The position numbers and the translations under genes were made by a program. This document shows, in pieces, positions 6,408 through 63,948 of a stretch of 64,000 bases of DNA. Positions within the stretch are counted from its first letter, which is position 1. Each line of letters begins with the position of its first letter. The notes beneath the pieces are model-generated. The model was not told the DNA's origin and made no database searches. It saw nothing but the letters and a program-made list of their open reading frames with translations. The stretch is from sequence record MF158045. One strand, written 5' to 3'. This DNA comes from Shigella phage Sf22.

Positions 6408-7202
6408 ATGGCAATTGTAGGTGTTCCTGGCTGGATTGGTGAATCTGCCGTGAATGAAACTGGACAGCGTTGGATGGATGCTGCGATGAGAGCAGTTCGT
6501 GTTTCAGTTCCTGGTTGGATGAGCTCAATGGCTGGGCAATCTAAAGAAGTATATTATAGCATTGGTGCTAGCAATTCTTACAATAAAGACACACTAATAA
6601 ATTATCTCAAATCTCAAGGTAGTACTCCTGTTGTTGTTACTATTACTGGTAACCTAGTTTCTTCATCTGCAAGGCAACCTTGCTTAGATTTTCCTAGCTC
6701 ATTAACTAATGCTTATGTAACGCTTATTATAAATGGCGGTGTAACAGTATATGGTCGCGGAGGACGCGGCGCGCAAGCGGGAAACCAGGCGGGTGAAGCT
6801 GGTGGTACTGCAATTAACAATGGTATAGGTACTCGTCTACGAATCACTAACAATGGAGCAATCGCTGGCGGTGGTGGTGGTGGCGGCGCCCAATCAACTG
6901 ATAATGGATGGGGAGGTAAATATGTTTCTGGCGGCGGCGGCGGACGTCCTTTCGGAGCTGGTGGTAATAATGGAGCAAAAGCTCCGGGTGCATCAGCATC
7001 TTTAACATCTCCAGGCGCAGGTGGAAAAATGTATTCCGGCGTTGGATACTACGGTGGTGACGGTGGTAATGTTGGTGAACGAGGTAAGGATGCGGTTAGA
7101 TTGAACGGCTATTCGAACTCACCTGGCGCAGCAGGTAAAGCTGTTACTGGTAACGCACCAACATGGACTAAGGTTGGTACAATATATGGTTCAAGAGTAT
7201 AA
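6408..7202 (+). CDS. 38: Receptor-recognising tail fiber adhesin gp38 (T2-type, glycine-rich motifs)
   Basis: 264 aa with several poly-Gly blocks (GGGGGGGAQ, GGGGG) separated by variable segments; immediately downstream of gp37. Confidence 0.85.
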   Translation: MAIVGVPGWIGESAVNETGQRWMDAAMRAVRVSVPGWMSSMAGQSKEVYYSIGASNSYNKDTLINYLKSQGSTPVVVTITGNLVSSSARQPCLDFPSSLTNAYVTLIINGGVTVYGRGGRGAQAGNQAGEAGGTAINNGIGTRLRITNNGAIAGGGGGGGAQSTDNGWGGKYVSGGGGGRPFGAGGNNGAKAPGASASLTSPGAGGKMYSGVGYYGGDGGNVGERGKDAVRLNGYSNSPGAAGKAVTGNAPTWTKVGTIYGSRV

Positions 7203-7208
7203 TTTTTG

Positions 7209-7216
7209 AATAAATA
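7209..7216 (+). promoter_or_regulatory. Possible late-promoter-like box (AATAAATA) upstream of t
   Basis: One mismatch to TATAAATA, about 19 nt before the t ATG. Confidence 0.3.
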
Positions 7217-10619: not shown

Positions 10620-10660
10620 TTTCTAATCTCCGTAATTCTGTATCAGTAGTTGATAGTTGT

Positions 10661-13923: not shown

Positions 13924-13951
13924 TTTCTGTTCCTCCGTAGTTGATAGGGTA

Positions 13952-13981
13952 ATAGTACCACGGAAGAACAGTCTTGTAAAC
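13952..13981 (-). promoter_or_regulatory. T4-type early promoter upstream of small membrane peptide ORF
   Basis: Minus strand GTTTAC, 18 nt, TACTAT. Confidence 0.55.
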
Positions 13982-14467: not shown

Positions 14468-14497
14468 ATAGTACCACGGTCCTTGTGGTATGTAAAC
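14468..14497 (-). promoter_or_regulatory. T4-type early promoter upstream of ORF 14167-14442
   Basis: Minus strand GTTTAC, 18 nt, TACTAT; same leader motif as the motA promoter. Confidence 0.6.
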
Positions 14498-15099: not shown

Positions 15100-15130
15100 T
15101 TCTCTTAAAACAAAAGGGCCGAAGCCCTTA
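15100..15130 (-). terminator. UUCG-loop hairpin downstream of the 64-aa ORF
   Basis: Minus strand AAGGGC-UUCG-GCCCUU plus U-rich tail. Confidence 0.5.
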
Positions 15131-15132
15131 TT

Positions 15133-15327
15133 TTATTTGAATTGTGCGATTCTTTTCTCTAGACACTCAGCATAAGATTTCATTGAGATGAACTGTGAAA
15201 GCAGCAGTTCTTGCTCAACTGCACTAACCGTTAGAAACTTTGTGCTTTCTAAAAATTTGCTCAGTGCATTAATTTTGAGCATTAATTGATCGTATTCTTC
15301 TTTTACTCGTGCTTGATAACCTAACAT
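15133..15327 (-). CDS. Hypothetical protein (64 aa)
   Basis: ORF track; flanked on both sides by near-identical GGGCCGAAGCCC hairpins. Confidence 0.5.
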   Translation of the reverse strand: MLGYQARVKEEYDQLMLKINALSKFLESTKFLTVSAVEQELLLSQFISMKSYAECLEKRIAQFK

Positions 15328-15346
15328 AATTTTCCTTAATATGATA

Positions 15347-15362
15347 AGGGCCGAAGCCCTTA
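15347..15362 (-). terminator. UUCG-loop hairpin downstream of rIIB
   Basis: Same AAGGGCTTCGGCCCTT element as at 15114-15129. Confidence 0.5.
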
Positions 15363-16298
15363 TTTAAATTGTTCAGTAACGTCTTCAACTACTTCGTATT
15401 GGCAGGTACGCATTTTAGCATCGTTGTAATCAATCGGAATTGATACTACATCACGCGGATGTACTTTAACTTTTACAACTCGGCTGGTTGAACTGCCAAA
15501 GTGACGAATATAAGATTTAGAACACACATGCAGACCACGAGAACAAGTTTGTGTATCATCGTCATTTACACGAGTACGTGGCATTTTAACTACTTTACCA
15601 GGACTGTTATCAAAGGTATTTGAGTGACAGTCAAAGTAATTGCTACGAACTACTTTCCAAGCATAGAAGTAACCATCTTCTGTAATTTCAATATCGTTTG
15701 CTACCAAGAAATCAAAGAGTCGAGATACCGCTTTCTGGCTTGGGTTTTCCAGCAGATTTTCCAAGAACGGAAAATAAAATTCAAAGTTTTCGCCTTTTTC
15801 CATCGAGTCAAGAATACGATCAACCAAACCAGACCGCAATTCGATATTTTGATAGAACAAGCTTCCACCTTCAATTCGAACATCGCCGGAAATATATTTT
15901 TCAACAGCGCGACGAACATTAATTTTTTGTGCCGCTTCTTCCAACTTATCTGCTACGAGCAGATTAAGAATTTCCTGGAAGTTTGAATGAGTATTAGGAG
16001 TTGCGTTATAAGTTACGCCATCAACAGTAATTGAAATGAATTTTTTAGATGCATTCCAAATAATGTCAGATTTAGCAACTGGAGCAATAACTGCATCGCT
16101 ATTAACTTTAACTGTAATATCACCGCTAATAGTAACTTTAGGGTGTTTAGCTTCTTCAGCATTTTTCAAAACACGACGGATTGTGTCAACCGATACATCC
16201 TTCCAATAAGCTAATTCCTGCTGAGTGTAATTACCACTTGAATACAGTTTAACAATTTCAGCTTGTTCGTTTTTGGTCAGGCATTTAATATTGTACAT
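15360..16298 (-). CDS. rIIB: rIIB protein
   Basis: 312 aa (T4 rIIB 312 aa); directly downstream of rIIA. Confidence 0.9.
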   Translation of the reverse strand: MYNIKCLTKNEQAEIVKLYSSGNYTQQELAYWKDVSVDTIRRVLKNAEEAKHPKVTISGDITVKVNSDAVIAPVAKSDIIWNASKKFISITVDGVTYNATPNTHSNFQEILNLLVADKLEEAAQKINVRRAVEKYISGDVRIEGGSLFYQNIELRSGLVDRILDSMEKGENFEFYFPFLENLLENPSQKAVSRLFDFLVANDIEITEDGYFYAWKVVRSNYFDCHSNTFDNSPGKVVKMPRTRVNDDDTQTCSRGLHVCSKSYIRHFGSSTSRVVKVKVHPRDVVSIPIDYNDAKMRTCQYEVVEDVTEQFK

Positions 16299-18701: not shown

Positions 18702-18727
18702 TTCAATATCCTCATTTGCCCAATTAA

Positions 18728-18756
18728 TTATACCACATCCTTGTGGTAAAGTAAAC
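18728..18756 (-). promoter_or_regulatory. T4-type early promoter upstream of rIIA.1
   Basis: Minus strand GTTTAC, 17 nt, TGgTATAAT (perfect extended -10). Confidence 0.75.
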
Positions 18757-20576
18757 TACTGGCTCATCCATTCTTTACGAAGGTCAGCATTATCTCCCAT
18801 GAGCATTTCAAAAAGCTCTTTCCAATTCTCAGGAAGTTTAACAACATCATATACTGGATTTTGAATCATCTCACGATATTCAGATTTTTCCAAAGAGCCA
18901 AGTCCCTTAATATAACGGATGCTATGTTTAGGTAGAGCATCTTTGGCACTCTCATATTCAGCGACTGTATAAAACCATTCTTGTTTTTTACCGACCTGAG
19001 CGATGATTACAGGAGTTTTGACAAAGCGAATTCGTCCTTGCTCAAACAATTCTGGCCAATTACTAAAAAATCCGAGCAGAGAAGGATAAATGCTTCCTAA
19101 ACCATCATGGTCAGCATCAGTCATAATAGCAATATTATGATAATTCAAGTTTTCAGCTTTTTCACCGAGAACTAGACCAGTGATTGCGCAAATATCAAAT
19201 AATTCTTTGTTTTTAAGCATATCTGCATAAGACATACCCCAACTGTTGAGAACTTTACCACGCAATGGATAACCACCGTGAAGTTCTTTATCACGAACAT
19301 CAATAAGATATCCGATAGCCGAATCACCCTCAGTCAAGAAAAGAGTAGTATCAGCATCTTTACCGCAAAGATTCGCTTTGATATGTTTATGAACTTTAGC
19401 TTTAGAAGCCTTTTTAGCTGCTTTAGTTTCAGCTGCTTTTTCTGCTGCCAATTTACGGGCCAAGGCAGCTTCAATAATCGGCATTAAAATTGCTTCATTA
19501 TTTAGAATAGCGCGTGAAATCTTTTTAGCATCAAGCTGAATATGACTACGAATTTCGCCAAATGGAGAAGTCAAACGCTCTTTAGTTTGAGAATCAAATC
19601 GCATGTTTTTCATATCACGGACAAACATAACGATAGTCAAACATTCTTTGACACGTGCTTTAGTTACATCAATTTTGAACTTACGTTTGATTTGTGGAAT
19701 AAGGTCTTCACAAATATCATCCATAACACAGTCAATGTGATGGCCACCATTCTTAGTGTGAATGTTATTCACATAAGTTAATTGGCGAAATCCATCCGGT
19801 GAACGACCAACCGCAATAGAACAATTTTCTTGTTCTTGAACAATAGCATGTTCATCATACTGTCGTGCATATTTCTTAAAATTGCCCTGAACCTTTTTAC
19901 CATTAAAGGTAAATTGAATATCAGGATAAACTACTGCAAGTGTCTGGAGACGATCCAGTGTAATGTCAAGATAAACTTGGGACAGCTCATTAGTTTCAAA
20001 TGACATAAAATCTGGAATGAAAGTAACACGAGTTCCTTTCCATTTTCCAGGAATAGTTTCCCAGGATTTATTTTCCATGCCATTTGAACAACGAACTACA
20101 ATATTATTTTGACCATCGCCAGTTTCACCGACAAACATCACAGAAAAAATGTTAGTTAAACTAGAACCAACACCATTCATACCACCGGTGACACGTTCTT
20201 TATCATCACCAAAGTTACCACCCGCTTTTGGAATAGTCCAAGCAGCAACTGGACCAGGAATTTCTTCACCGGTAGGTGTTTTAACCATCGCTTGTGGAAT
20301 ACCACGACCGTTATCTTCAACTGTTACTTGATTGTTTTTGATAGTAACATTAATTTTATTTGCGAATTTAAACTTAGTACGAATACCTTCATCTACTGAG
20401 TTATCGATAATTTCATCAATAAGCTTAACAAGACCAGGTACATACTGAACACTTTCCCATTTACCAAACAGAAAGCGCTCATGCATTTCATTAGCAGAAG
20501 AGCCAATATACATGCCGCTACGCTTTTTGATATGTTCAATATCGCTCAGAATTTTAATTTCATTCTTAATCATCAC
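18756..20576 (-). CDS. 39: DNA topoisomerase II large (ATPase) subunit, uninterrupted gp39/gp60 equivalent
   Basis: 606 aa, GHKL ATPase plus Toprim-like regions in one frame; T4 splits this into gp39 and gp60. Confidence 0.9.
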   Translation of the reverse strand: MMIKNEIKILSDIEHIKKRSGMYIGSSANEMHERFLFGKWESVQYVPGLVKLIDEIIDNSVDEGIRTKFKFANKINVTIKNNQVTVEDNGRGIPQAMVKTPTGEEIPGPVAAWTIPKAGGNFGDDKERVTGGMNGVGSSLTNIFSVMFVGETGDGQNNIVVRCSNGMENKSWETIPGKWKGTRVTFIPDFMSFETNELSQVYLDITLDRLQTLAVVYPDIQFTFNGKKVQGNFKKYARQYDEHAIVQEQENCSIAVGRSPDGFRQLTYVNNIHTKNGGHHIDCVMDDICEDLIPQIKRKFKIDVTKARVKECLTIVMFVRDMKNMRFDSQTKERLTSPFGEIRSHIQLDAKKISRAILNNEAILMPIIEAALARKLAAEKAAETKAAKKASKAKVHKHIKANLCGKDADTTLFLTEGDSAIGYLIDVRDKELHGGYPLRGKVLNSWGMSYADMLKNKELFDICAITGLVLGEKAENLNYHNIAIMTDADHDGLGSIYPSLLGFFSNWPELFEQGRIRFVKTPVIIAQVGKKQEWFYTVAEYESAKDALPKHSIRYIKGLGSLEKSEYREMIQNPVYDVVKLPENWKELFEMLMGDNADLRKEWMSQ

Positions 20577-20600: not shown

Positions 20601-20625
20601 ATTATACTCCGGTAATCATAAAGCT
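20601..20625 (-). promoter_or_regulatory. Possible middle/early promoter upstream of gene 39
   Basis: Minus strand imperfect MotA box AGCTTTA, 12 nt, TATAAT. Confidence 0.35.
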
Positions 20626-20641
20626 AAAGGCCCGAAGGCCT
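20622..20641 (-). terminator. UUCG-loop hairpin downstream of lipoprotein ORF, upstream of gene 39
   Basis: AAAGGCC-TTCG-GGCCTTT (minus-strand reading). Confidence 0.45.
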
Positions 20642-20642
20642 T

Positions 20643-20912
20643 TTATTTAAAACGAATAGTTGAATCCTTAAAGAACAGCCCAGAACATACTGTTCCTTCT
20701 ACTTTCTGCCCAGTAGGTCCAACAGCACGAAATCCAGTATGTTGGAAATCATTTTCAGAGCAACCAAACCAATTATATCCAGTGATTTCAATATTAGTAA
20801 AACCGCTTGATGACAAAATTTTGGTTGCATTATCAGCATCAGTACATCCTGCTAAAGACACTGCTAATACTAATGCTGCGATAGAACGATTAATATATTT
20901 CATAATTTTCAC
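20643..20912 (-). CDS. Putative lipoprotein (89 aa)
   Basis: Signal peptide with lipobox LAGC (AALVLAVSLAGCTD). Confidence 0.55.
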   Translation of the reverse strand: MKIMKYINRSIAALVLAVSLAGCTDADNATKILSSSGFTNIEITGYNWFGCSENDFQHTGFRAVGPTGQKVEGTVCSGLFFKDSTIRFK

Positions 20913-21887: not shown

Positions 21888-22102
21888 TAATAAATTTCCT
21901 TCCAGTAAGTTGTGCCATCTTCAGTAATTTCACGAAATACACCGTAAATTGGTTGTTTATCACCAACCTTTTCATACACATAAACCGAAGTCAAGTGAGT
22001 AAACTTAACGGTATGTTCCTTTTGAACCACTACCAAATCTGGATCAAATAATACATCTTCAAATTCGTCATTAGTGCAATTCTGAACAATTTTACGTTTC
22101 AT
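21887..22102 (-). CDS. Hypothetical protein (71 aa)
   Basis: ORF track; stop/start overlap with upstream ORF. Confidence 0.5.
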
Positions 22103-22208
22103 TACAATTTCCTCATTAATTAAACATTGGAGCGATACGTTTCAGAAGAGTAGCAGCACCTTTAGCGAATTTTACATCATGAAAAACAGTTTCTTCTTCT
22201 GTAACAAC

Positions 22209-22397
22209 TCAAACTTTAATATTTTCACAATCCCAATTTTTACGAACAATCTTCAAAAGCTGCAGTAAATCTTTACATTCAGCAATATCGATAACACATC
22301 CACGAGAATCTTCCATTATCGCACGATAACCGTAAGCCATACCATAATCATTAAAAGATTGCTCGATGATAATTAAGTTTTCCATTTTATTCTCCAA
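22209..22397 (-). CDS. Hypothetical protein (62 aa)
   Basis: ORF track; leader contains a 13-bp inverted repeat. Confidence 0.45.
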   Translation of the reverse strand: MENKMENLIIIEQSFNDYGMAYGYRAIMEDSRGCVIDIAECKDLLQLLKIVRKNWDCENIKV

Positions 22398-22408
22398 GTT
22401 GTTTTCTG

Positions 22409-22451
22409 TATCAGTAGTTGATATTGATATAGTACCATAATCAACTACTGA
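22409..22451. repeat. 13-bp perfect inverted repeat with 17-nt loop
   Basis: ATCAGTAGTTGAT at 22409-22421 and ATCAACTACTGAT at 22439-22451. Confidence 0.85.
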
Positions 22452-22482
22452 TGTATATAGTTTTATGAAAAAATTTTAAACT

Positions 22483-22974
22483 TTATGCATAGCGAGCTTT
22501 GCTGTAGTGTTTAATCCAACTTTCAGGAATGACTTTGTATGTTCCTAAAAATACCGCGTTGTATAACTTAACGCCATCTTCTACCCATTGATCAGTAATG
22601 TATGCACACATAGCGCGAGTACGGTTAACAACACCTTCCTCACCTTCAGTAAATTCAAACTCATAAGGAGCAACGAACTTGATAGCTTGACCGAGTTTCC
22701 ACTTAAAGTCTACACCTACATGCGAAGTATCAATCGTTTCAATTCCTTTAGCGGGAACAGCTTTCAAAAACGCAGGCTCAAGAAATTTCCATCGAACATA
22801 ACCAAACTGAGGTTTAGACATTCCATCTTTAGGAATGATACGCACTTTTACTTCAGAATCTTCATCTTTAACACCATGTTTAAGCTGAATGCTTACGACT
22901 TCAACCAATTTTCCTGCTGCCTTAGAACGGGATTTATCAGATACACGAGCAATTTCACCGATATTAATATTCAT
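22483..22974 (-). CDS. Hypothetical protein (163 aa), possibly MotB-like by position and size
   Basis: ORF track; consensus early promoter upstream; C-terminal domain shared with the neighbouring 145-aa ORF. Confidence 0.5.
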   Translation of the reverse strand: MNINIGEIARVSDKSRSKAAGKLVEVVSIQLKHGVKDEDSEVKVRIIPKDGMSKPQFGYVRWKFLEPAFLKAVPAKGIETIDTSHVGVDFKWKLGQAIKFVAPYEFEFTEGEEGVVNRTRAMCAYITDQWVEDGVKLYNAVFLGTYKVIPESWIKHYSKARYA

Positions 22975-23018
22975 AATTATCTCTCACTTGTTAAAAAGAT
23001 TTTATACTCCACGGGACC

Positions 23019-23048
23019 ATTATACTCTGGTCCCAAGAGTTTGTAAAC
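23019..23048 (-). promoter_or_regulatory. T4-type early promoter upstream of ORF 22483-22974, -10 inside an inverted repeat
   Basis: Minus strand GTTTAC, 18 nt, TATAAT; TATAAT lies in the loop of GGGACCA/TGGTCCC (23013-23034). Confidence 0.65.
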
Positions 23049-23485
23049 TAGCTTACACGAACATTAATCACTGCGCTGCGAGGAACTACAGAGTACTCTC
23101 CAGCATGAACTACGTTCAGAAGTTCAACACCATCTTCAATCCACTGATCAGTCACCCATCCACCCACAGGATTCGCGAATGGACGACGAATATAAACTGC
23201 CTTACACAGCAGATCAGTTGGATCTTCAGGTTTTTCAATTTCTGTCAATAGACTAAAATCTTTTTCATAAATAATAAGCGGTGATACCATTCCATAATAG
23301 TTTCTAATTTCAATATACATCATACCGATAAGAATTCCGCTATTAACACTAATAACAGTAAAAGGATATCCGCCAGTTAAACCAAGAAGTTCACAAAACT
23401 TATTATGAGCTGTATTAGACAGTACCGAAAAATTCTTAATTTCATCAAATTTTTTCAATTGATAAACAGCATTATTTTTAATCAT
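23048..23485 (-). CDS. Hypothetical protein (145 aa), paralog of 22483-22974
   Basis: Shared C-terminal motif VTDQWIEDGVELLNVVHAGEYSVVP vs ITDQWVEDGVKLYNAVFLGTYKVIP. Confidence 0.5.
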   Translation of the reverse strand: MIKNNAVYQLKKFDEIKNFSVLSNTAHNKFCELLGLTGGYPFTVISVNSGILIGMMYIEIRNYYGMVSPLIIYEKDFSLLTEIEKPEDPTDLLCKAVYIRRPFANPVGGWVTDQWIEDGVELLNVVHAGEYSVVPRSAVINVRVS

Positions 23486-23495
23486 AATTTTCTCT

Positions 23496-24038
23496 TTAAT
23501 CTAAGGTAATAAAGCCTTTTAATTCGGCATGGGATTTACGGAACATTACTTGGTGCCCGCCAATGATAACTTGATCATCTGGAACTTCGTATACAGCGAG
23601 ATAAAATCCTTTAGAAGATAATTCTTCACGCTCTTCTCGTGTGAACCATCTCATCATATCATATTCGCTAGCGAAAGCAAAATGATAAAGAGCTATAAAC
23701 CATCCTGGAATATAGTGATCTACGCCTACATATTCTTCTTTCTCAAAATTAGTATTAATTGCTATATTAGCATTTTTAACTAATAATTTGTCTTCGTGTG
23801 GAAGAGGAATTCTTTTATTATCATTACTATGATGCATAAAATTAGGTCTGTCATAACCTACGTGTAATAACCACTCTTCGCTCCATGAATCTATTATACT
23901 CCTGTATGGCGTTATTTGAACACAAAGATCTCGACGTATTGTTATAGCATCTTCATAATTAAGAATACTAAACGATGATTCAACACGATAAATTTTCATT
24001 TTATTATCCTCAGTAGCTATGGTGTTATAATACCACAA
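23496..24038 (-). CDS. Hypothetical protein (180 aa)
   Basis: ORF track; early promoter upstream. Confidence 0.5.
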   Translation of the reverse strand: MWYYNTIATEDNKMKIYRVESSFSILNYEDAITIRRDLCVQITPYRSIIDSWSEEWLLHVGYDRPNFMHHSNDNKRIPLPHEDKLLVKNANIAINTNFEKEEYVGVDHYIPGWFIALYHFAFASEYDMMRWFTREEREELSSKGFYLAVYEVPDDQVIIGGHQVMFRKSHAELKGFITLD

Positions 24039-24056
24039 CTAACCGAGGAAGTAAAC
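24027..24056 (-). promoter_or_regulatory. T4-type early promoter upstream of ORF 23496-24038
   Basis: Minus strand GTTTAC, 18 nt, TATTAT. Confidence 0.6.
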
Positions 24057-28580: not shown

Positions 28581-29200
28581 TCAACTACCTCAATATCATA
28601 AACTTTAAATGTTCCAAATGAATCGTGTAATTTTTCTTTTGAAATAGAAGTTATTTTATACTTTCCAATTGGAATCATCCATTCTTGTTCATGTACAATC
28701 ATCATTAAGTTATCAGTACGCTCTGAATCTAATCCATCAGTATCTTCATACGTGTACTTAAACTCAGTATTAGGAGAAGAAAGTATAATATCGCTGATAT
28801 GGTCAGAGTAATTAAAAGCTTTATCAGTTTTTAAACGAAGTATTGTTTCAGTGAAATATTCAGCATAAGAAAAAGAACACGCTGTATGCAAACTAGTAGT
28901 AAATGAATCTACCCTGTTCGTTGAAAACACTTCTCCAACTTGTAAATCTTTAATAAGTTCTTTTGTCGATTTTGATATACCACGATATAACTGATAAGGC
29001 GATTTAGTTAAATGCTTTTTAATGATTTTATTCAATTGCCGATGAAGAGCTTCATTCTTTTTAGCTTCCATACATTGCCAAAGAACAGACTGCTCAAAAT
29101 CAGTAAATTTTTCACAGACCTTTTTATACATATCATATTGAAAATCAACGCTTTCAGCTTTTATAGATAACTGTTCAACATCTGCAAGATTAATAATCAT
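28577..29200 (-). CDS. modB: ADP-ribosyltransferase ModB
   Basis: 207 aa (T4 ModB 207 aa); paralog of modA (LYRGIS, QEWMIPIG); early promoter upstream. Confidence 0.8.
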   Translation of the reverse strand: MIINLADVEQLSIKAESVDFQYDMYKKVCEKFTDFEQSVLWQCMEAKKNEALHRQLNKIIKKHLTKSPYQLYRGISKSTKELIKDLQVGEVFSTNRVDSFTTSLHTACSFSYAEYFTETILRLKTDKAFNYSDHISDIILSSPNTEFKYTYEDTDGLDSERTDNLMMIVHEQEWMIPIGKYKITSISKEKLHDSFGTFKVYDIEVVE

Positions 29201-29226
29201 GATAGCCTCCGTATACTTCAGAAGCT

Positions 29227-29256
29227 ATCATATCATCGTTAGAAAGGAAAGTAAAC
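29227..29256 (-). promoter_or_regulatory. T4-type early promoter upstream of modB
   Basis: Minus strand GTTTAC, 18 nt, TATGAT. Confidence 0.6.
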
Positions 29257-35991: not shown

Positions 35992-36049
35992 AACAATCTC
36001 CTCATTTAACCAACAAGACTACTATACCATAGTCTCGTCAGCTTGTAAA

Positions 36050-41705: not shown

Positions 41706-41727
41706 ATCCGTATTAGTTGATAGTTGT

Positions 41728-44570: not shown

Positions 44571-44630
44571 AGATATTCCTTAGTTTATAGCCCGAGTTAT
44601 TAGGCTCTTGATATATTATACTCCAAATAA

Positions 44631-44645
44631 GGGGCCGAAGCCCCT
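44631..44645 (-). promoter_or_regulatory. UUCG-loop hairpin in regA-43 intergenic leader
   Basis: GGGGC-TTCG-GCCCC (minus strand) just upstream of a TATAAT and the gene 43 RBS. Confidence 0.4.
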
Positions 44646-44648
44646 TGC

Positions 44649-45017
44649 TTAATTACCAATCGTATATTTAGGAACGAGTTTCCATTCATGTTTTTGTTTA
44701 AAAGAAATAACTCGGAAGTTATTAGTTAAATCTTTCATAAAAGTTCTTTGACCAGGAACGATTTCAATCAGTCCCCAATCTTCTAACAACCATGCAATCG
44801 AATCACGACGAACTTCATCTTCTTCTGTCATTTCAACTTGACGGCCATCCATACGAAGCATTTCTTTAAAATGAACGATATAGTATAGTCCTTTTTTCTG
44901 AAGAATATGACAGGACTGATACAGAACTTTATCTTTATTATTAGCAATTCCCATACGAGTCAAAGTTTCTTTTACTTTCAGAAAATCTTCAGGTTTTTTA
45001 AGAGTAATTTCAATCAT
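44649..45017 (-). CDS. regA: Translational repressor RegA
   Basis: 122 aa (T4 RegA 122 aa); synteny 43-regA-62. Confidence 0.9.
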   Translation of the reverse strand: MIEITLKKPEDFLKVKETLTRMGIANNKDKVLYQSCHILQKKGLYYIVHFKEMLRMDGRQVEMTEEDEVRRDSIAWLLEDWGLIEIVPGQRTFMKDLTNNFRVISFKQKHEWKLVPKYTIGN

Positions 45018-46558: not shown

Positions 46559-46577
46559 GTTTTAGTGTAAATTATAA

Positions 46578-46591
46578 AGGGCCGAAGCCCT
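46578..46591 (-). terminator. UUCG-loop hairpin between genes 45 and 44
   Basis: AGGGC-TTCG-GCCCT (minus-strand reading). Confidence 0.4.
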
Positions 46592-46594
46592 CTA

Positions 46595-47281
46595 TTAAAA
46601 ATCGTGGGTAGAATCAGCTTCAAGAGCTACTACATAATTCGCGTGTTCACCTTCAAATTTAGCAGCACCTTGTTTACCTTTTGCCCAGAGCAGAAGTTTA
46701 TAATTTCCTGGTTGCATTTTCATATTTGCCATATTGATAATGAAATTAAATGTATTTTCACCATCATAATCACCAAGAGTCAAAGAATATTTAACACGGG
46801 TAAGAGCAGAATCTTCTACTTTATTAAAACCGTTAATTACGATTTTACCTTCTTTTACCGTGATAGCAATTGTATCAATCTGCAGACCACGAGATACACG
46901 CAACAGCTGTTGAAGGTCTTCAGCTTTAATTTCAGTAACAACAGATGCTACCGGGAATGGAATTGGTTTATTAGGAGCAACTACTGTACTCGGATCGGCT
47001 GCTGGCCAAAAAATTGTTGAACGGGCATCAGCAATTTTAATATTACCATCTTCTGACTGGGAAATTTCTGCATCGTCATTAACTAGAGACAGAATACCGA
47101 GAAAACCGTTCAAATCGTAAATCGCTACATCAAAATCAATAGTGTCAGAAATATTTGCTTCCGCATAAGTTGTACCATTAACTGCGCGAGTCATAATAAA
47201 TTGACCGGATTTAAGCATAATACCAGAGTTAATAGTAGCGAAATTTTTAAGCAGAGCAGTAGTATCTTTAGACAGTTTCAT
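46595..47281 (-). CDS. 45: Sliding clamp gp45
   Basis: 228 aa (T4 gp45 228 aa); MotA-box middle promoter upstream. Confidence 0.9.
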   Translation of the reverse strand: MKLSKDTTALLKNFATINSGIMLKSGQFIMTRAVNGTTYAEANISDTIDFDVAIYDLNGFLGILSLVNDDAEISQSEDGNIKIADARSTIFWPAADPSTVVAPNKPIPFPVASVVTEIKAEDLQQLLRVSRGLQIDTIAITVKEGKIVINGFNKVEDSALTRVKYSLTLGDYDGENTFNFIINMANMKMQPGNYKLLLWAKGKQGAAKFEGEHANYVVALEADSTHDF

Positions 47282-51125: not shown

Positions 51126-51287
51126 ATATCAAGAACCGTCATTGAAATGCAAAATAAAATTATTGAAATAAATCCATCTGGAGTGCTAAAGAACCCAATC
51201 CAGCATGCTCTAGTGAATAGATAAAATGCAAGAAAAAGTATCACATATCCAAGAAATATCATTATATCAAACTCCGTATAAAGCTAA

Positions 51288-51303
51288 AGGGCCGAAGCCC
51301 TTT
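51288..51303 (-). terminator. UUCG-loop hairpin at 3-prime end of a-gt
   Basis: AAGGGC-TTCG-GCCCTT overlapping the a-gt stop codon. Confidence 0.45.
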
Positions 51304-52504
51304 ATTTTGTAATAATGTCAAACTGTTCTTTAAAGCAGAAGCTTGAATCTTGATGCTGATACAAAAATTCATATGCTTTTTCTCGCTCACGGTCATAAAG
51401 AGCTCGGTCAGATGACAGTTCTTTAATACGCTCGAATGTTGATTCCATATCATTTTCATCAAACCAAACGATACCGCTATCATGCGAAATTAGCGGAGTA
51501 TTATCAACACGGAATTTTAAATTTTCGCCAGTAGATTTCCAAAATACCGGAATTGTTCCACATGCACCAAGCTCGAGATGAGTATATTCTAAAGAGCGCT
51601 GTAGATATTTTTTATCCAACTTACTCAGCTGATAACCAAAACCGGATTTACTCATACGTTCAAGCATTTCGCTATTTACATAACGGTCAAGAATTTGCGT
51701 TGGCAAATTAGGAGCAATTTTAATTTGGTCTACTTGATGAAGACGATAATACTCGTATGGAATTCCTTTTTCTTTAATAGGAATGAACGCTGGAGAACGT
51801 TCCAGACCTTCCATAATAGTACTTAGTCCTGCAGGTTTAAGATGTTTTTCATGAAAATCAAACATCTGATAAAAACCTTTCCATGTAGTCGTACGACCAA
51901 TCCAACGGTTGATATTCATGTTAATTTCAGAAACATCTTTCCAGTAAGTTGACCGAACCTTCGCAATATCCATAGGAGGCTGAAAGTTATATACTGTCGG
52001 TGCTTCTTCAATATCATCAAACAGAGAAACAGTTTCTGGATACCATTCTTTCATCAGAACTTTATTAAAATCACCATTATCAGAATGGCTAAAAATAACA
52101 TCAGCTCGACGAACAGTTTCTTCTAATCCCAAATTTCGACGCAAAGAAAGAGAAGAATGGTCATGCTGATAAACTACAACACGAACCGAAGGTTTAATGT
52201 TATCAATAATTTTTTTATAGTTATTAATAGTGTCTTCTTCAACCGAAGTAGCAGGAACTGAATTGATAATTAGAATATCACAATCATTTACCAGCTTAAG
52301 TGTTTTATCATATTCTTTTGCCAATAAAACCGGAATTGAAAATGATTTATAATCATGCGCGCAATTACGAGTAAATGATTTATCTTTAGCATAAACCAAA
52401 GTCACTTCATGACCATTTTTAATAAACCAATCACGTTGCTCGAGTGAGAATTTTGTTACACCACAACCTTCAAGACCTCGAGCCATAAAAATACATACTT
52501 TCAT
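51302..52504 (-). CDS. a-gt: Alpha-glucosyltransferase (HMC-DNA alpha-glucosylation)
   Basis: 400 aa; N-terminus CIFMARGLEGCGVTKFSLEQRDWFIKNGHEV matches T4 AGT as recalled. Confidence 0.9.
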   Translation of the reverse strand: MKVCIFMARGLEGCGVTKFSLEQRDWFIKNGHEVTLVYAKDKSFTRNCAHDYKSFSIPVLLAKEYDKTLKLVNDCDILIINSVPATSVEEDTINNYKKIIDNIKPSVRVVVYQHDHSSLSLRRNLGLEETVRRADVIFSHSDNGDFNKVLMKEWYPETVSLFDDIEEAPTVYNFQPPMDIAKVRSTYWKDVSEINMNINRWIGRTTTWKGFYQMFDFHEKHLKPAGLSTIMEGLERSPAFIPIKEKGIPYEYYRLHQVDQIKIAPNLPTQILDRYVNSEMLERMSKSGFGYQLSKLDKKYLQRSLEYTHLELGACGTIPVFWKSTGENLKFRVDNTPLISHDSGIVWFDENDMESTFERIKELSSDRALYDREREKAYEFLYQHQDSSFCFKEQFDIITK

Positions 52505-54887: not shown

Positions 54888-54926
54888 ACATTATCCTCAA
54901 TTACGTTAAAATTTTATTATCCAAAA

Positions 54927-54942
54927 AGGGCCGAAGCCCTTA
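54927..54942 (-). terminator. UUCG-loop hairpin between ORFs 54940-55140 and 54561-54887
   Basis: AAGGGC-TTCG-GCCCTT. Confidence 0.4.
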
Positions 54943-55140
54943 GCTAAACTTTTTGGCGCCCTTCCAGCCTTCATACATCATTGCGGCTGATATTAATATT
55001 GCTCCTGAGCAACTTGAATATTTGTGATTCCAAAACCAGTTTAGAAAAACTTCGTCATCAATACCTTGTGCTATCATATTTTCAAAGAACTGACGACGAG
55101 CTTCGGCAATTCGCTGCGATAATTTAGATTCAGGATTCAT
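54940..55140 (-). CDS. Hypothetical protein (66 aa)
   Basis: ORF track; UUCG hairpin upstream. Confidence 0.45.
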   Translation of the reverse strand: MNPESKLSQRIAEARRQFFENMIAQGIDDEVFLNWFWNHKYSSCSGAILISAAMMYEGWKGAKKFS

Positions 55141-63454: not shown

Positions 63455-63484
63455 ATTATACCACATCCTTGTGGCAAAGTAAAC
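63455..63484 (-). promoter_or_regulatory. T4-type early promoter upstream of ORF 62425-63426
   Basis: Minus strand GTTTAC, 18 nt, TGgTATAAT; nearly identical to the promoter at 18728-18756. Confidence 0.75.
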
Positions 63485-63948
63485 TAGTTCAGTGCATTTA
63501 GTGCATTGTTCAGTTTAGAACGTTGCTTCGTGAGATTTTTGACTTTTTCTTGTGCTTTTTCTAGCATCTTTTCAGCTTCTAACACTTCATTGGTCGCTTT
63601 AACGAGTTCATCATCTACTGCCTTAAGGGACTTCTCAATCGCATCCGCGTGCCATTTTTCAACAGGTTTAAGACTCGGATTTTCAATAGGAAGAAAATTC
63701 ACTTTATTGAATTTCCATGCATCTTTATTACCTGAACTATACATCCAAAATTTAGGATCATTTGACGAGTAATTAGATAAATTTAAGTTATCTTGCACTT
63801 CCTGCTTTTTCTCTTGCGGGACTTCGTCCTTTCTCAAAAAATCGTATTTAAATGAAACGATCATATCAAGTTCATATGTTGTCGTATCTAATTTAAATCG
63901 TTCGAAATGCGGCGAAATCTTAGATTGAACAGCAGCAACAACATCCAT
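63484..63948 (-). CDS. Hypothetical protein (154 aa) with coiled-coil C-terminus
   Basis: ORF track; in-frame stop upstream of the Met, so it is complete within the window. Confidence 0.5.
   Translation of the reverse strand: MDVVAAVQSKISPHFERFKLDTTTYELDMIVSFKYDFLRKDEVPQEKKQEVQDNLNLSNYSSNDPKFWMYSSGNKDAWKFNKVNFLPIENPSLKPVEKWHADAIEKSLKAVDDELVKATNEVLEAEKMLEKAQEKVKNLTKQRSKLNNALNALN

Follow-up and report, generated by a model that had tools for sequence, protein, structure and literature searches.

T4-type early promoter cassettes on either side of motB in Shigella phage Sf22 carry their -10 elements within predicted RNA hairpins

Why should the -10 element of an early phage promoter lie inside an inverted repeat? 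The question is raised by two sites next to motB in a window of 64,000 nucleotides from Shigella phage Sf22 (MF158045). The initial annotation had described them as early promoters with embedded -10 elements and had offered three interpretations: cruciforms, RNA-hairpin regulatory elements, or footprints of promoter-cassette rearrangement. The observation is confirmed here and is stronger than stated; its interpretation is only partly supported. The window comes from a Tequatrovirus: in a sequence search, the 1.8 kb surrounding both repeats matched 583 phage records, with Escherichia phage JLBYU22 closest (99.4%) and T4 at ~91%, and both elements are present in T4 nearly base for base, at about 7,180-7,215 and about 6,590-6,650 of NC_000866. 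The genes concerned lie on the minus strand (topoisomerase gp39, goF, cef, a small ORF, motB, a MotB paralog, dexA and dda), and we read both promoters and their hairpins on this coding strand. All +1 positions are predictions, placed at the usual spacing of 7 nt from the -10 element. A literature search for T4 start-site maps returned no mapped start or 3' end at either promoter, the promoters mapped in the MotB papers are others, and the records AF158101 and NC_000866 list no promoter features. The promoter upstream of motB is annotated as such in phage wV7.

This promoter, PmotB, has the form TTTACA-17-TATAAT on the minus strand. It is a sigma-70-type early promoter and the top sigma-70 match in 20.5-25.5 kb (11/12 to consensus). 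Its layout is TAG/TTTACA - AACTCTTGGGACCAGAG - TATAAT - GGTCCC - G(+1)UGGAGUAUAAAA ... GAGAG ... ATG. The -35 element (G-TTTACA, with the hexamer at 23042-23047) is abutted by the stop codon TAG of the upstream MotB paralog, and the 25 nt upstream are only 64% A+T. The 7-bp repeat around TATAAT that had been pointed out is found as GGGACCA (23013-23019) and TGGTCCC (23028-23034), separated by an 8-nt loop; on the minus strand the -10 element (23024-23019) is spelled out within the loop, GAGTATAA, taken together with the T that opens the 3' arm. By itself this repeat is unremarkable, as the window holds 128 perfect 7-bp repeats with loops of 3-12 nt vs 76 +/- 11 in shuffles. It is the core of a 13-pair stem with one bulge (23006-23040; ACUCUUGGGACCA / UGGUCCC-G-UGGAGU), which folds with a dG of -21.6 kcal/mol (z = -4.0). 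The inner 7-8 pairs (23013-23035) fall at -23 to -1, before the predicted start at 23012 (the G of GUGGAG), and in the outer helix CUCU of the spacer pairs with GGAG at +3 to +6 (23007-23010). This GGAG, followed by an A-rich UAUAAAA, is a RegB-like site and not the Shine-Dalgarno (SD) sequence of motB; the latter (GAGAG) and the ATG (22974-22972) together span 22972-22985, outside the hairpin.

The second cassette lies just downstream of motB, between that gene and the small ORF, and has the form TATACA-17-TGG-TACTAT on the minus strand. After the motB stop codon it runs A/T-rich block - TATACA - TCAGTAGTTGATTATGG - TACTAT - ATCAAT - A(+1)UCAACUACUGAU ... GGAG ... ATG. The A/T-rich, UP-like region directly past the stop codon is AAAGTTTAAAATTTTTTCATAAAAC (22458-22482). 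The hexamer TATACA (22452-22457) is the -35 equivalent and aligns with GTTTACA of paralogous cassettes; it is one base off TTTACW, and the same variant occurs in the Dhakavirus orthologs and in a JK45 copy. An extended -10 element, TGG plus TACTAT (22429-22437, with the -10 at 22434-22429), sits at the apex of the hairpin. The ORF served by this cassette, whose GGAG SD and ATG lie at 22383-22395, has an in-frame TGA in this window and is deleted in T4. A promoter farther upstream (TTTAAA ... TATATA), which would give a transcript with the whole 13-bp hairpin at its 5' end, was considered and rejected, because in the alignment this sequence corresponds to the UP region of the paralogs, and both the hexamers and their spacing are poor.

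A perfect 13-bp repeat does surround the TACTATA of this cassette, one base away from where it had been placed: its arms ATCAGTAGTTGAT and ATCAACTACTGAT lie at 22410-22422 and 22440-22452. Through a 2x2 internal loop the pairing extends to 18 pairs (13 perfect and 5 further ones) that bracket TACTAT, and the 5' arm of this hairpin (22410-22452) is the promoter spacer. It is the sole perfect 13-bp repeat in the window, where 0.08 are expected, and folds with a dG of -20.2 kcal/mol (z = -6.5). The 3' arm, AUCAACUACUGAU, is a conserved leader motif that begins at the predicted +1 (22422). This motif, CAGTAGTTGATA, has 24 matches with at most two mismatches in the window vs 6.4 expected. Copies at 10644, 13935 and 14451 (exact or one mismatch) and at 41711 (two mismatches) sit just 3' of the early promoters 10689, 13980, 14496 and 41756, so the repeat was correctly described as holding an inverted copy of a leader motif from other early promoters. 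These four promoters belong to a family of six copies (D1): the second cassette aligns over its full length with five paralogous early-promoter cassettes in the window, its A/T-rich block with the UP region of theirs. Unlike these paralogs, it has a spacer exactly complementary to the first 13 bases of its own predicted transcript.

Could these be middle promoters, for which the proposed in vitro transcription with and without MotA/AsiA would matter? The MotA box has the consensus (a/t)(a/t)(a/t)TGCTTtA and, centred at -30, replaces the -35 element (PMC1524935). The core TGCTT is absent from both spacers, AACTCTTGGGACCAGAG and TCAGTAGTTGATTATGG, and both promoters have -35-type hexamers, which places them in the early class and makes MotA/AsiA irrelevant here. 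Their -35/-10 anatomy and their folds thus support the description of early-type promoters with -10 elements in inverted repeats.

Both cassettes share one architecture: the spacer between the -35 and -10 elements is occupied by the 5' arm, the -10 element is found at the loop, and the 3' arm coincides with the predicted start or immediately precedes it. We folded an identical 73-nt frame at 19 promoter-like sites and found a strong hairpin that includes the -10 element and reaches into the leader at six of them (13980, 22457, 23047, 24055, 29255 and 36049). These 6/19 promoter frames fold at <= -19.5 kcal/mol, an energy that only 2.7% of arbitrarily placed frames reach (P = 7.7e-6). When the entire minus strand was scanned, the promoter hairpins came out among the most stable structures, on a par with the canonical terminators with UUCG tetraloops. 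Five of the six have their 5' arm within the spacer and a stem that brackets the -10 element. Early promoter 13980 has a 15-bp hairpin around its -10 (13927-13971, minus strand) with the SD GGAGG in the 3' arm. Downstream of dexA, at 24055 (24007-24049, minus strand), UCCUC of the spacer pairs with the SD GAGGA, a design that is kept in Dhakavirus with different sequence, as an anti-SD/SD stem with other filling. Site 36049 has a 14-pair hairpin around its -10 TATAGT (36009-36042, minus strand); in the segment folded for the two-strand comparison below, it has 15 pairs, 5 of them G.U. The exception is 29255 (29198-29232, minus strand), where the -10 TATGAT is itself part of the 5' arm and pairs with both the SD and the ATG of the gene that follows.

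Does the repeat act in the DNA or in the RNA? In a DNA-level element, a cruciform or a site for a dimeric protein on the duplex would switch the embedded promoter on or off. The repeat at 22410-22452 is perfect and A/T-rich, as such an element would have it, its -10 element would be single-stranded at the tip of a cruciform, and the shut-off of T4 early promoters is incompletely understood (PMC3014915; PMC2988021). The pairing, however, is strand-asymmetric. We folded 17 promoter hairpins on both strands and compared them with genome-wide baseline windows. Sixteen of the 17 are more stable as sense RNA vs 68% of structured windows genome-wide, and the mean dG difference (sense - antisense) is -5.6 kcal/mol vs -0.8 for all windows and -1.9 for structured windows. 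The 17 hairpins contain a total of 38 G.U pairs in the sense and 4 in the antisense orientation (baseline 1.4 and 1.0 per window), and each sense G.U is an A.C mismatch on the other strand of a cruciform. One-sided changes in 12 PmotB-type stems are likewise all G.U-compatible on the sense strand. The arms differ wholly between promoters and between genera, which leaves no common operator, and in an extruded cruciform the spacer would be folded away and the geometry of the -35 and -10 elements lost. Because the both-strand pairing or shared arm sequence that a cruciform or operator needs fails, the sequence comparisons argue for placing the selected structure in the sense RNA, and we regard a DNA-level switch as highly improbable. 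The RNA-hairpin option of the initial annotation thus fits the data, and its cruciform option does not. Phage N4 virion RNA polymerase hairpin promoters and Frpo of the F plasmid are DNA hairpins used by a dedicated polymerase or on single-stranded DNA. They resemble the present sites in tying promoter elements to an inverted repeat and differ from them in that here an ordinary duplex -35/-10 promoter is used and the pairing signal is in the RNA.

If the structure is selected, its stem should leave a trace in related phages. T4 and 12 other Tequatrovirus loci carry both elements almost unchanged, and five motB loci from IMG/VR are all nearly identical. Across 14 Tequatrovirus loci the hairpin of the second cassette is invariant save one base, and the changes in the PmotB stem within the genus are pairing-neutral in RNA (C to U opposite G at two positions, and one on the bulged base). 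Dhakavirus and Gaprivervirus have hairpins at the orthologous junctions with different arm sequences; the Dhakavirus stems are GAGAGCCAU/AUGGCUCUC at the PmotB position and GGUAGGGUAGUG/UAUUACCCUAUC at the motB-cef junction. PmotB-type promoters with their hairpins also occur elsewhere, preceding e.6, a 'host specificity' gene and other ORFs in other phages, with copies at 3-4 places per genome in some, and the sequence search that located them hit roughly 730 genomes; stems of the dispersed copies are GAGAGCA/UGCUCUC, GGGAGUA/UACUCCC and GGGAGCA/UGCUCCU.

We aligned 12 PmotB-type cassettes, orthologs and dispersed paralogs together, and scored their stems for covariation. Pairing is possible in 99% of cells vs 31-43% with the 3' partner slid (n=12), and 3/8 pairs show a change on both sides (n=12). 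The covariation score is 0.455 vs 0.278 in shuffles (0/500 reach 0.455) and 0.04-0.12 with slid partners. Since the Tequatrovirus orthologs are near-identical, most of this signal is owed to the paralogs and the other genera, whose number is small and which share common descent. The variable columns are the stem columns, besides the -35 element and T13 of the outer helix (changed in one copy); the loop, the -10 element and AAACTCTTG are otherwise invariant in the alignment. This pattern indicates that the PmotB stem is maintained by compensatory substitution and hence is not a passive scar.

The same comparisons bear on a neutral origin, under which the hairpins would be by-products without function, left by cassette duplication, inversion or template-switch (quasi-palindrome) mutation in unconstrained promoter positions. 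Such an origin would explain why the 5' arm (22440-22452) repeats the paralogs' leader motif exactly in inverted orientation, as a template switch gives, and why the cassettes lie at indel and module junctions. It does not sit well with compensatory double substitutions that keep the PmotB stem, with different arms at the same junction between genera, or with the hairpin excess at promoters (P about 8e-6). In Gaprivervirus VR7, moreover, the motB-cef hairpin is retained with no recognisable -35 or -10 element left. We consider a neutral origin very unlikely. The proposed footprints of promoter-cassette rearrangement thus stand in part: the cassettes are dispersed repeats at module junctions, but stems kept by compensatory substitution are more than footprints.

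Elements of this kind are already described under the name PeSL (promoter-early stem-loop), and both present instances occur in T4 and hundreds of sequenced relatives. PeSL of T4-like phages were proposed as terminators or attenuators of upstream transcription and as substrates for modular shuffling (PMC2839356); the concept was extended to PST/T4 with the promoter consensus TTTACW-N17-TAYWAT (PMC4122927). PmotB fits this promoter form, as does the -10 element of the second cassette, whose -35 element is off by one base. Judged by their sequence, both elements are probably T4-type early promoter cassettes of the PeSL kind (Arbiol 2010; Comeau 2014). Like PeSL, they are intergenic early sigma-70-type promoters, usually with A/T-rich sequence upstream (marginal for PmotB), and follow the order stop codon, A/T-rich region, promoter, SD and ATG, in which the A/T-rich part is clear only for the 22.4-kb cassette. 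Like PeSL, they are repeated through plastic early regions, adjoining indels and gene replacements. Their stem-loops also match PeSL, whose classes include stem-loops between the -35 and -10 elements and over the -10 (PMC2839356). The 2014 figure legend places T-even stems 'just upstream' of the promoter; here they run across the -10, like the RB49/phi1 classes. The present stems also differ in not being poly-G/poly-C. Rfam covariance models gave no match at E <= 1 over 22000-23500. What we add is quantitative support for selection on the published PeSL stems and for their action at the RNA level; the accessible published text does not mention sense-strand G.U asymmetry or stem covariation.

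Are the hairpins then simply classical rho-independent terminators that belong to the genes before them, the MotB paralog and motB, and overlap the next promoter? Each is a stable stem-loop right after a stop codon in the sense RNA, and equivalent sequences in SA20RB and SA79RD carry WebGeSTer and TransTermHP annotations. One RB49 PeSL stem-loop was a strong terminator in a reporter, lowering expression as much as rrnB T1 did (PMC2839356); terminator activity and the formation of mini-circles by recombination between cassettes are shown for RB49/phi1 cassettes only. The structures in the window differ from intrinsic terminators in their loops of 8 and 3 nt (17 nt with the 13 perfect pairs alone), which hold the -10 element, and in having no U-tract. 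Right after either stem there is no U-run: the flanks are ACAGAAAAC and AUAAAAUC / AUAAAAUCUUUUU, with a U-run at least 9 nt past the stem. A terminator scan calls neither hairpin, and the canonical terminators of this genome are of another class, in which a U-run comes after a C(UUCG)G hairpin, and make up a separate repeat family (D2). Neither hairpin is thus a canonical terminator, and strict intrinsic termination is doubtful because there is no U-tract and the scan calls neither; we consider the classical-terminator explanation unlikely.

The reading that we favour combines the PeSL cassette with a hairpin in read-through RNA. The host sigma-70 RNA polymerase would read the -35, TGn and -10 elements of the cassettes. 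Where it does not read individual bases, in the spacer and between the -10 and the transcript start, the promoter would have been shaped into hairpin arms with the -10 at the tip. RNA from a cassette's own promoter would begin past the 5' arm, going by the predicted start, and so could not fold the hairpin. The hairpin would form only in RNA reading through from an upstream promoter, a step that rests on the predicted +1. In such RNA it would stand a few bases past the upstream stop codon as an intercistronic RNA element, and its most likely roles would be to attenuate or end read-through, to protect the 3' end of the upstream message, or both. In some cassettes it may also hide a GGAG or SD site. 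We hold this explanation as a whole to be probable, with moderate confidence. The biochemical role of the hairpin, be it attenuation, 3'-end protection or site masking, we infer.

The last of these roles can be framed as an explanation of its own, in which the GGAG (an SD and/or a RegB site) is hidden in read-through RNA and exposed in RNA from the embedded promoter, so that the two RNA classes differ in translation or RegB sensitivity. RegB is blocked by structure, which shields GGAG from it, and it spares most middle and all late RNAs (PMC3014915). In foldings of PmotB, the accessibility of GGAG is 0.91 in the primary transcript vs 0.03 in read-through RNA, and masking is also seen in T4, VR7 and ABTNLsp5 (empirical P 0.01-0.085). 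In three sister elements (13980, 24055 and 29255) the 3' arm includes the SD, whose accessibility is 0.84-0.91 in the primary transcript and falls to 0.00 when the RNA reads through from upstream. On the other side, the SD region of motB has an accessibility of 0.43 in both contexts, being outside the stem, and the hairpin at 22410-22452 contains neither a GGAG nor an SD. Masking of the GGA(G/U) beside the PmotB stem is absent in UPEC01 and in all GGAU paralogs, and over all promoters the masking of GGAG/SD by upstream promoter sequence has a mean z of ~0. RegB masking is demoted because there is no overall promoter trend, because it is lost in UPEC01 and the GGAU paralogs, and because the 22.4-kb hairpin has no such site. 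We therefore see transcript-specific masking as a rather unlikely primary explanation.

A late or middle promoter in a hairpin hides the ribosome-binding site in long transcripts of lysozyme gene e, soc, gene 49 and I-TevI. There, too, the promoter lies within or after the 5' arm, and long transcripts fold where short ones do not; the sister elements 13980, 24055 and 29255 share the SD in the 3' arm. Both hairpins at motB differ in using early promoters and in leaving the SD free. This translational control by a T4 'promoter inside a hairpin' reportedly goes back to McPheeters et al. in 1986, with later work. Embedding early promoters in hairpins might be a general T4 device for obtaining two kinds of RNA at a single site. 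Transcripts of the embedded promoter would have an exposed GGAG at the 5' end or an exposed SD and be translatable and open to RegB, and read-through RNA would have a paired GGAG and be silent and RegB-resistant; we think such a general device quite unlikely. Where a GGA(G/U) follows the hairpin directly, the hairpin could in addition mark a protected 3' end for the upstream message once the RNA has been cleaved.

The read-through hairpin would also account for the economy of these regions. T4-type early regions consist of tiny genes separated by gaps of 60-90 bases, and each gap has to end one message and start the next. A promoter-embedded hairpin fits both signals, with hexamers that are read by the polymerase and unread positions that carry RNA structure; the two can share a gap of ~75 nt because the arms occupy just those positions whose individual bases sigma-70 does not read. 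Insulation of neighbouring genes by the hairpins, if it occurs, would explain how modules can be swapped at the cassettes without disturbing adjacent genes, which is of relevance to phage genome evolution and to the engineering of T4-like therapeutic phages. Being repeated sequences, the cassettes would also serve as junctions for the exchange of gene modules. PeSL-to-PeSL recombination as the origin of the small-ORF deletion in T4 was considered and rejected, because the endpoints lie inside the ORF at a short AAAA-TT microhomology and no second cassette stands before cef. Depending on the phage, the ORF behind the second cassette is present, deleted or interrupted, and upstream of PmotB two unrelated alleles, motB.1 in T4 and the MotB paralog, meet the cassette exactly at TAG/TTTACA. 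The exact junction and the variable ORF are consistent with module shuffling at these cassettes.

The gene upstream of motB differs between Sf22 and T4: T4 motB.1 is replaced here by a MotB paralog (23048-23485, minus strand), which has a C-terminal ...TDQW(I/V)EDGV... region in common with MotB. Both alleles join exactly at the -35 element of PmotB, the predicted early promoter of motB. Every cassette of the PmotB type carries the motif GGA(G/U)(A/U)AUAA(A) at +3/+4, whatever gene lies downstream, as seen in the window at 22975-23012 and in the paralogous cassettes of other phages (L021, L023 and L026-L029). This motif could be a RegB-type site, or else it could be part of the initially transcribed consensus.

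The second cassette, an early promoter with a 13-bp-repeat hairpin, serves a small ORF on the minus strand (22116-22397). An in-frame TGA at 22206-22208 interrupts this ORF (...IKV*VVTEE...), and the counterpart in Escherichia phage JLBYU22, the best match to this region, has ...IKARVVTEE.... A deletion at an AAAA-TT microhomology has removed most of the ORF from T4 and several relatives, and in several lineages this gene seems to be undergoing decay. The Gaprivervirus VR7 retains the hairpin GAUAGGGUA/UGCCCUAUC at its motB|cef junction (L015, 950-975) and has no recognisable -35 or -10 element there, which suggests that the hairpin can persist after the promoter is lost.

Hairpins also accompany other early promoters in the window. 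A small conserved hairpin, CCACAAGGA(U/CC)GUGG (repeat family D18), is carried by early promoters at 18727-18758 and 63455-63486 and also at 14468-14496; the hairpin is confined wholly to the promoter spacer and TGn region, and these promoters are a second class resembling PeSLs, the published promoter-early stem-loop cassettes of T4-like phages. A further early promoter on the minus strand (29198-29232) has its -10 element, TATGAT, inside the 5' arm of a hairpin, where it pairs with the downstream gene's ATG and its Shine-Dalgarno sequence, GGAGG. That gene is a clear candidate for translation from the proximal transcript only.

Separate from these promoter-embedded hairpins is a family of GGGCUUCGGCCC-type hairpins (D2/D3), each followed by a U-run; these are the terminators with a C(UUCG)G tetraloop that are classical for T4. 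They lie on the minus strand at 15112-15133, 15344-15365, 20625-20646, 44628-44649, 46575-46596, 51285-51306 and 54924-54945. Short perfect inverted repeats are in general excess over the whole window, with 128 perfect 7-bp repeats (3-12 nt loop) compared to 76 ± 11 in dinucleotide shuffles.
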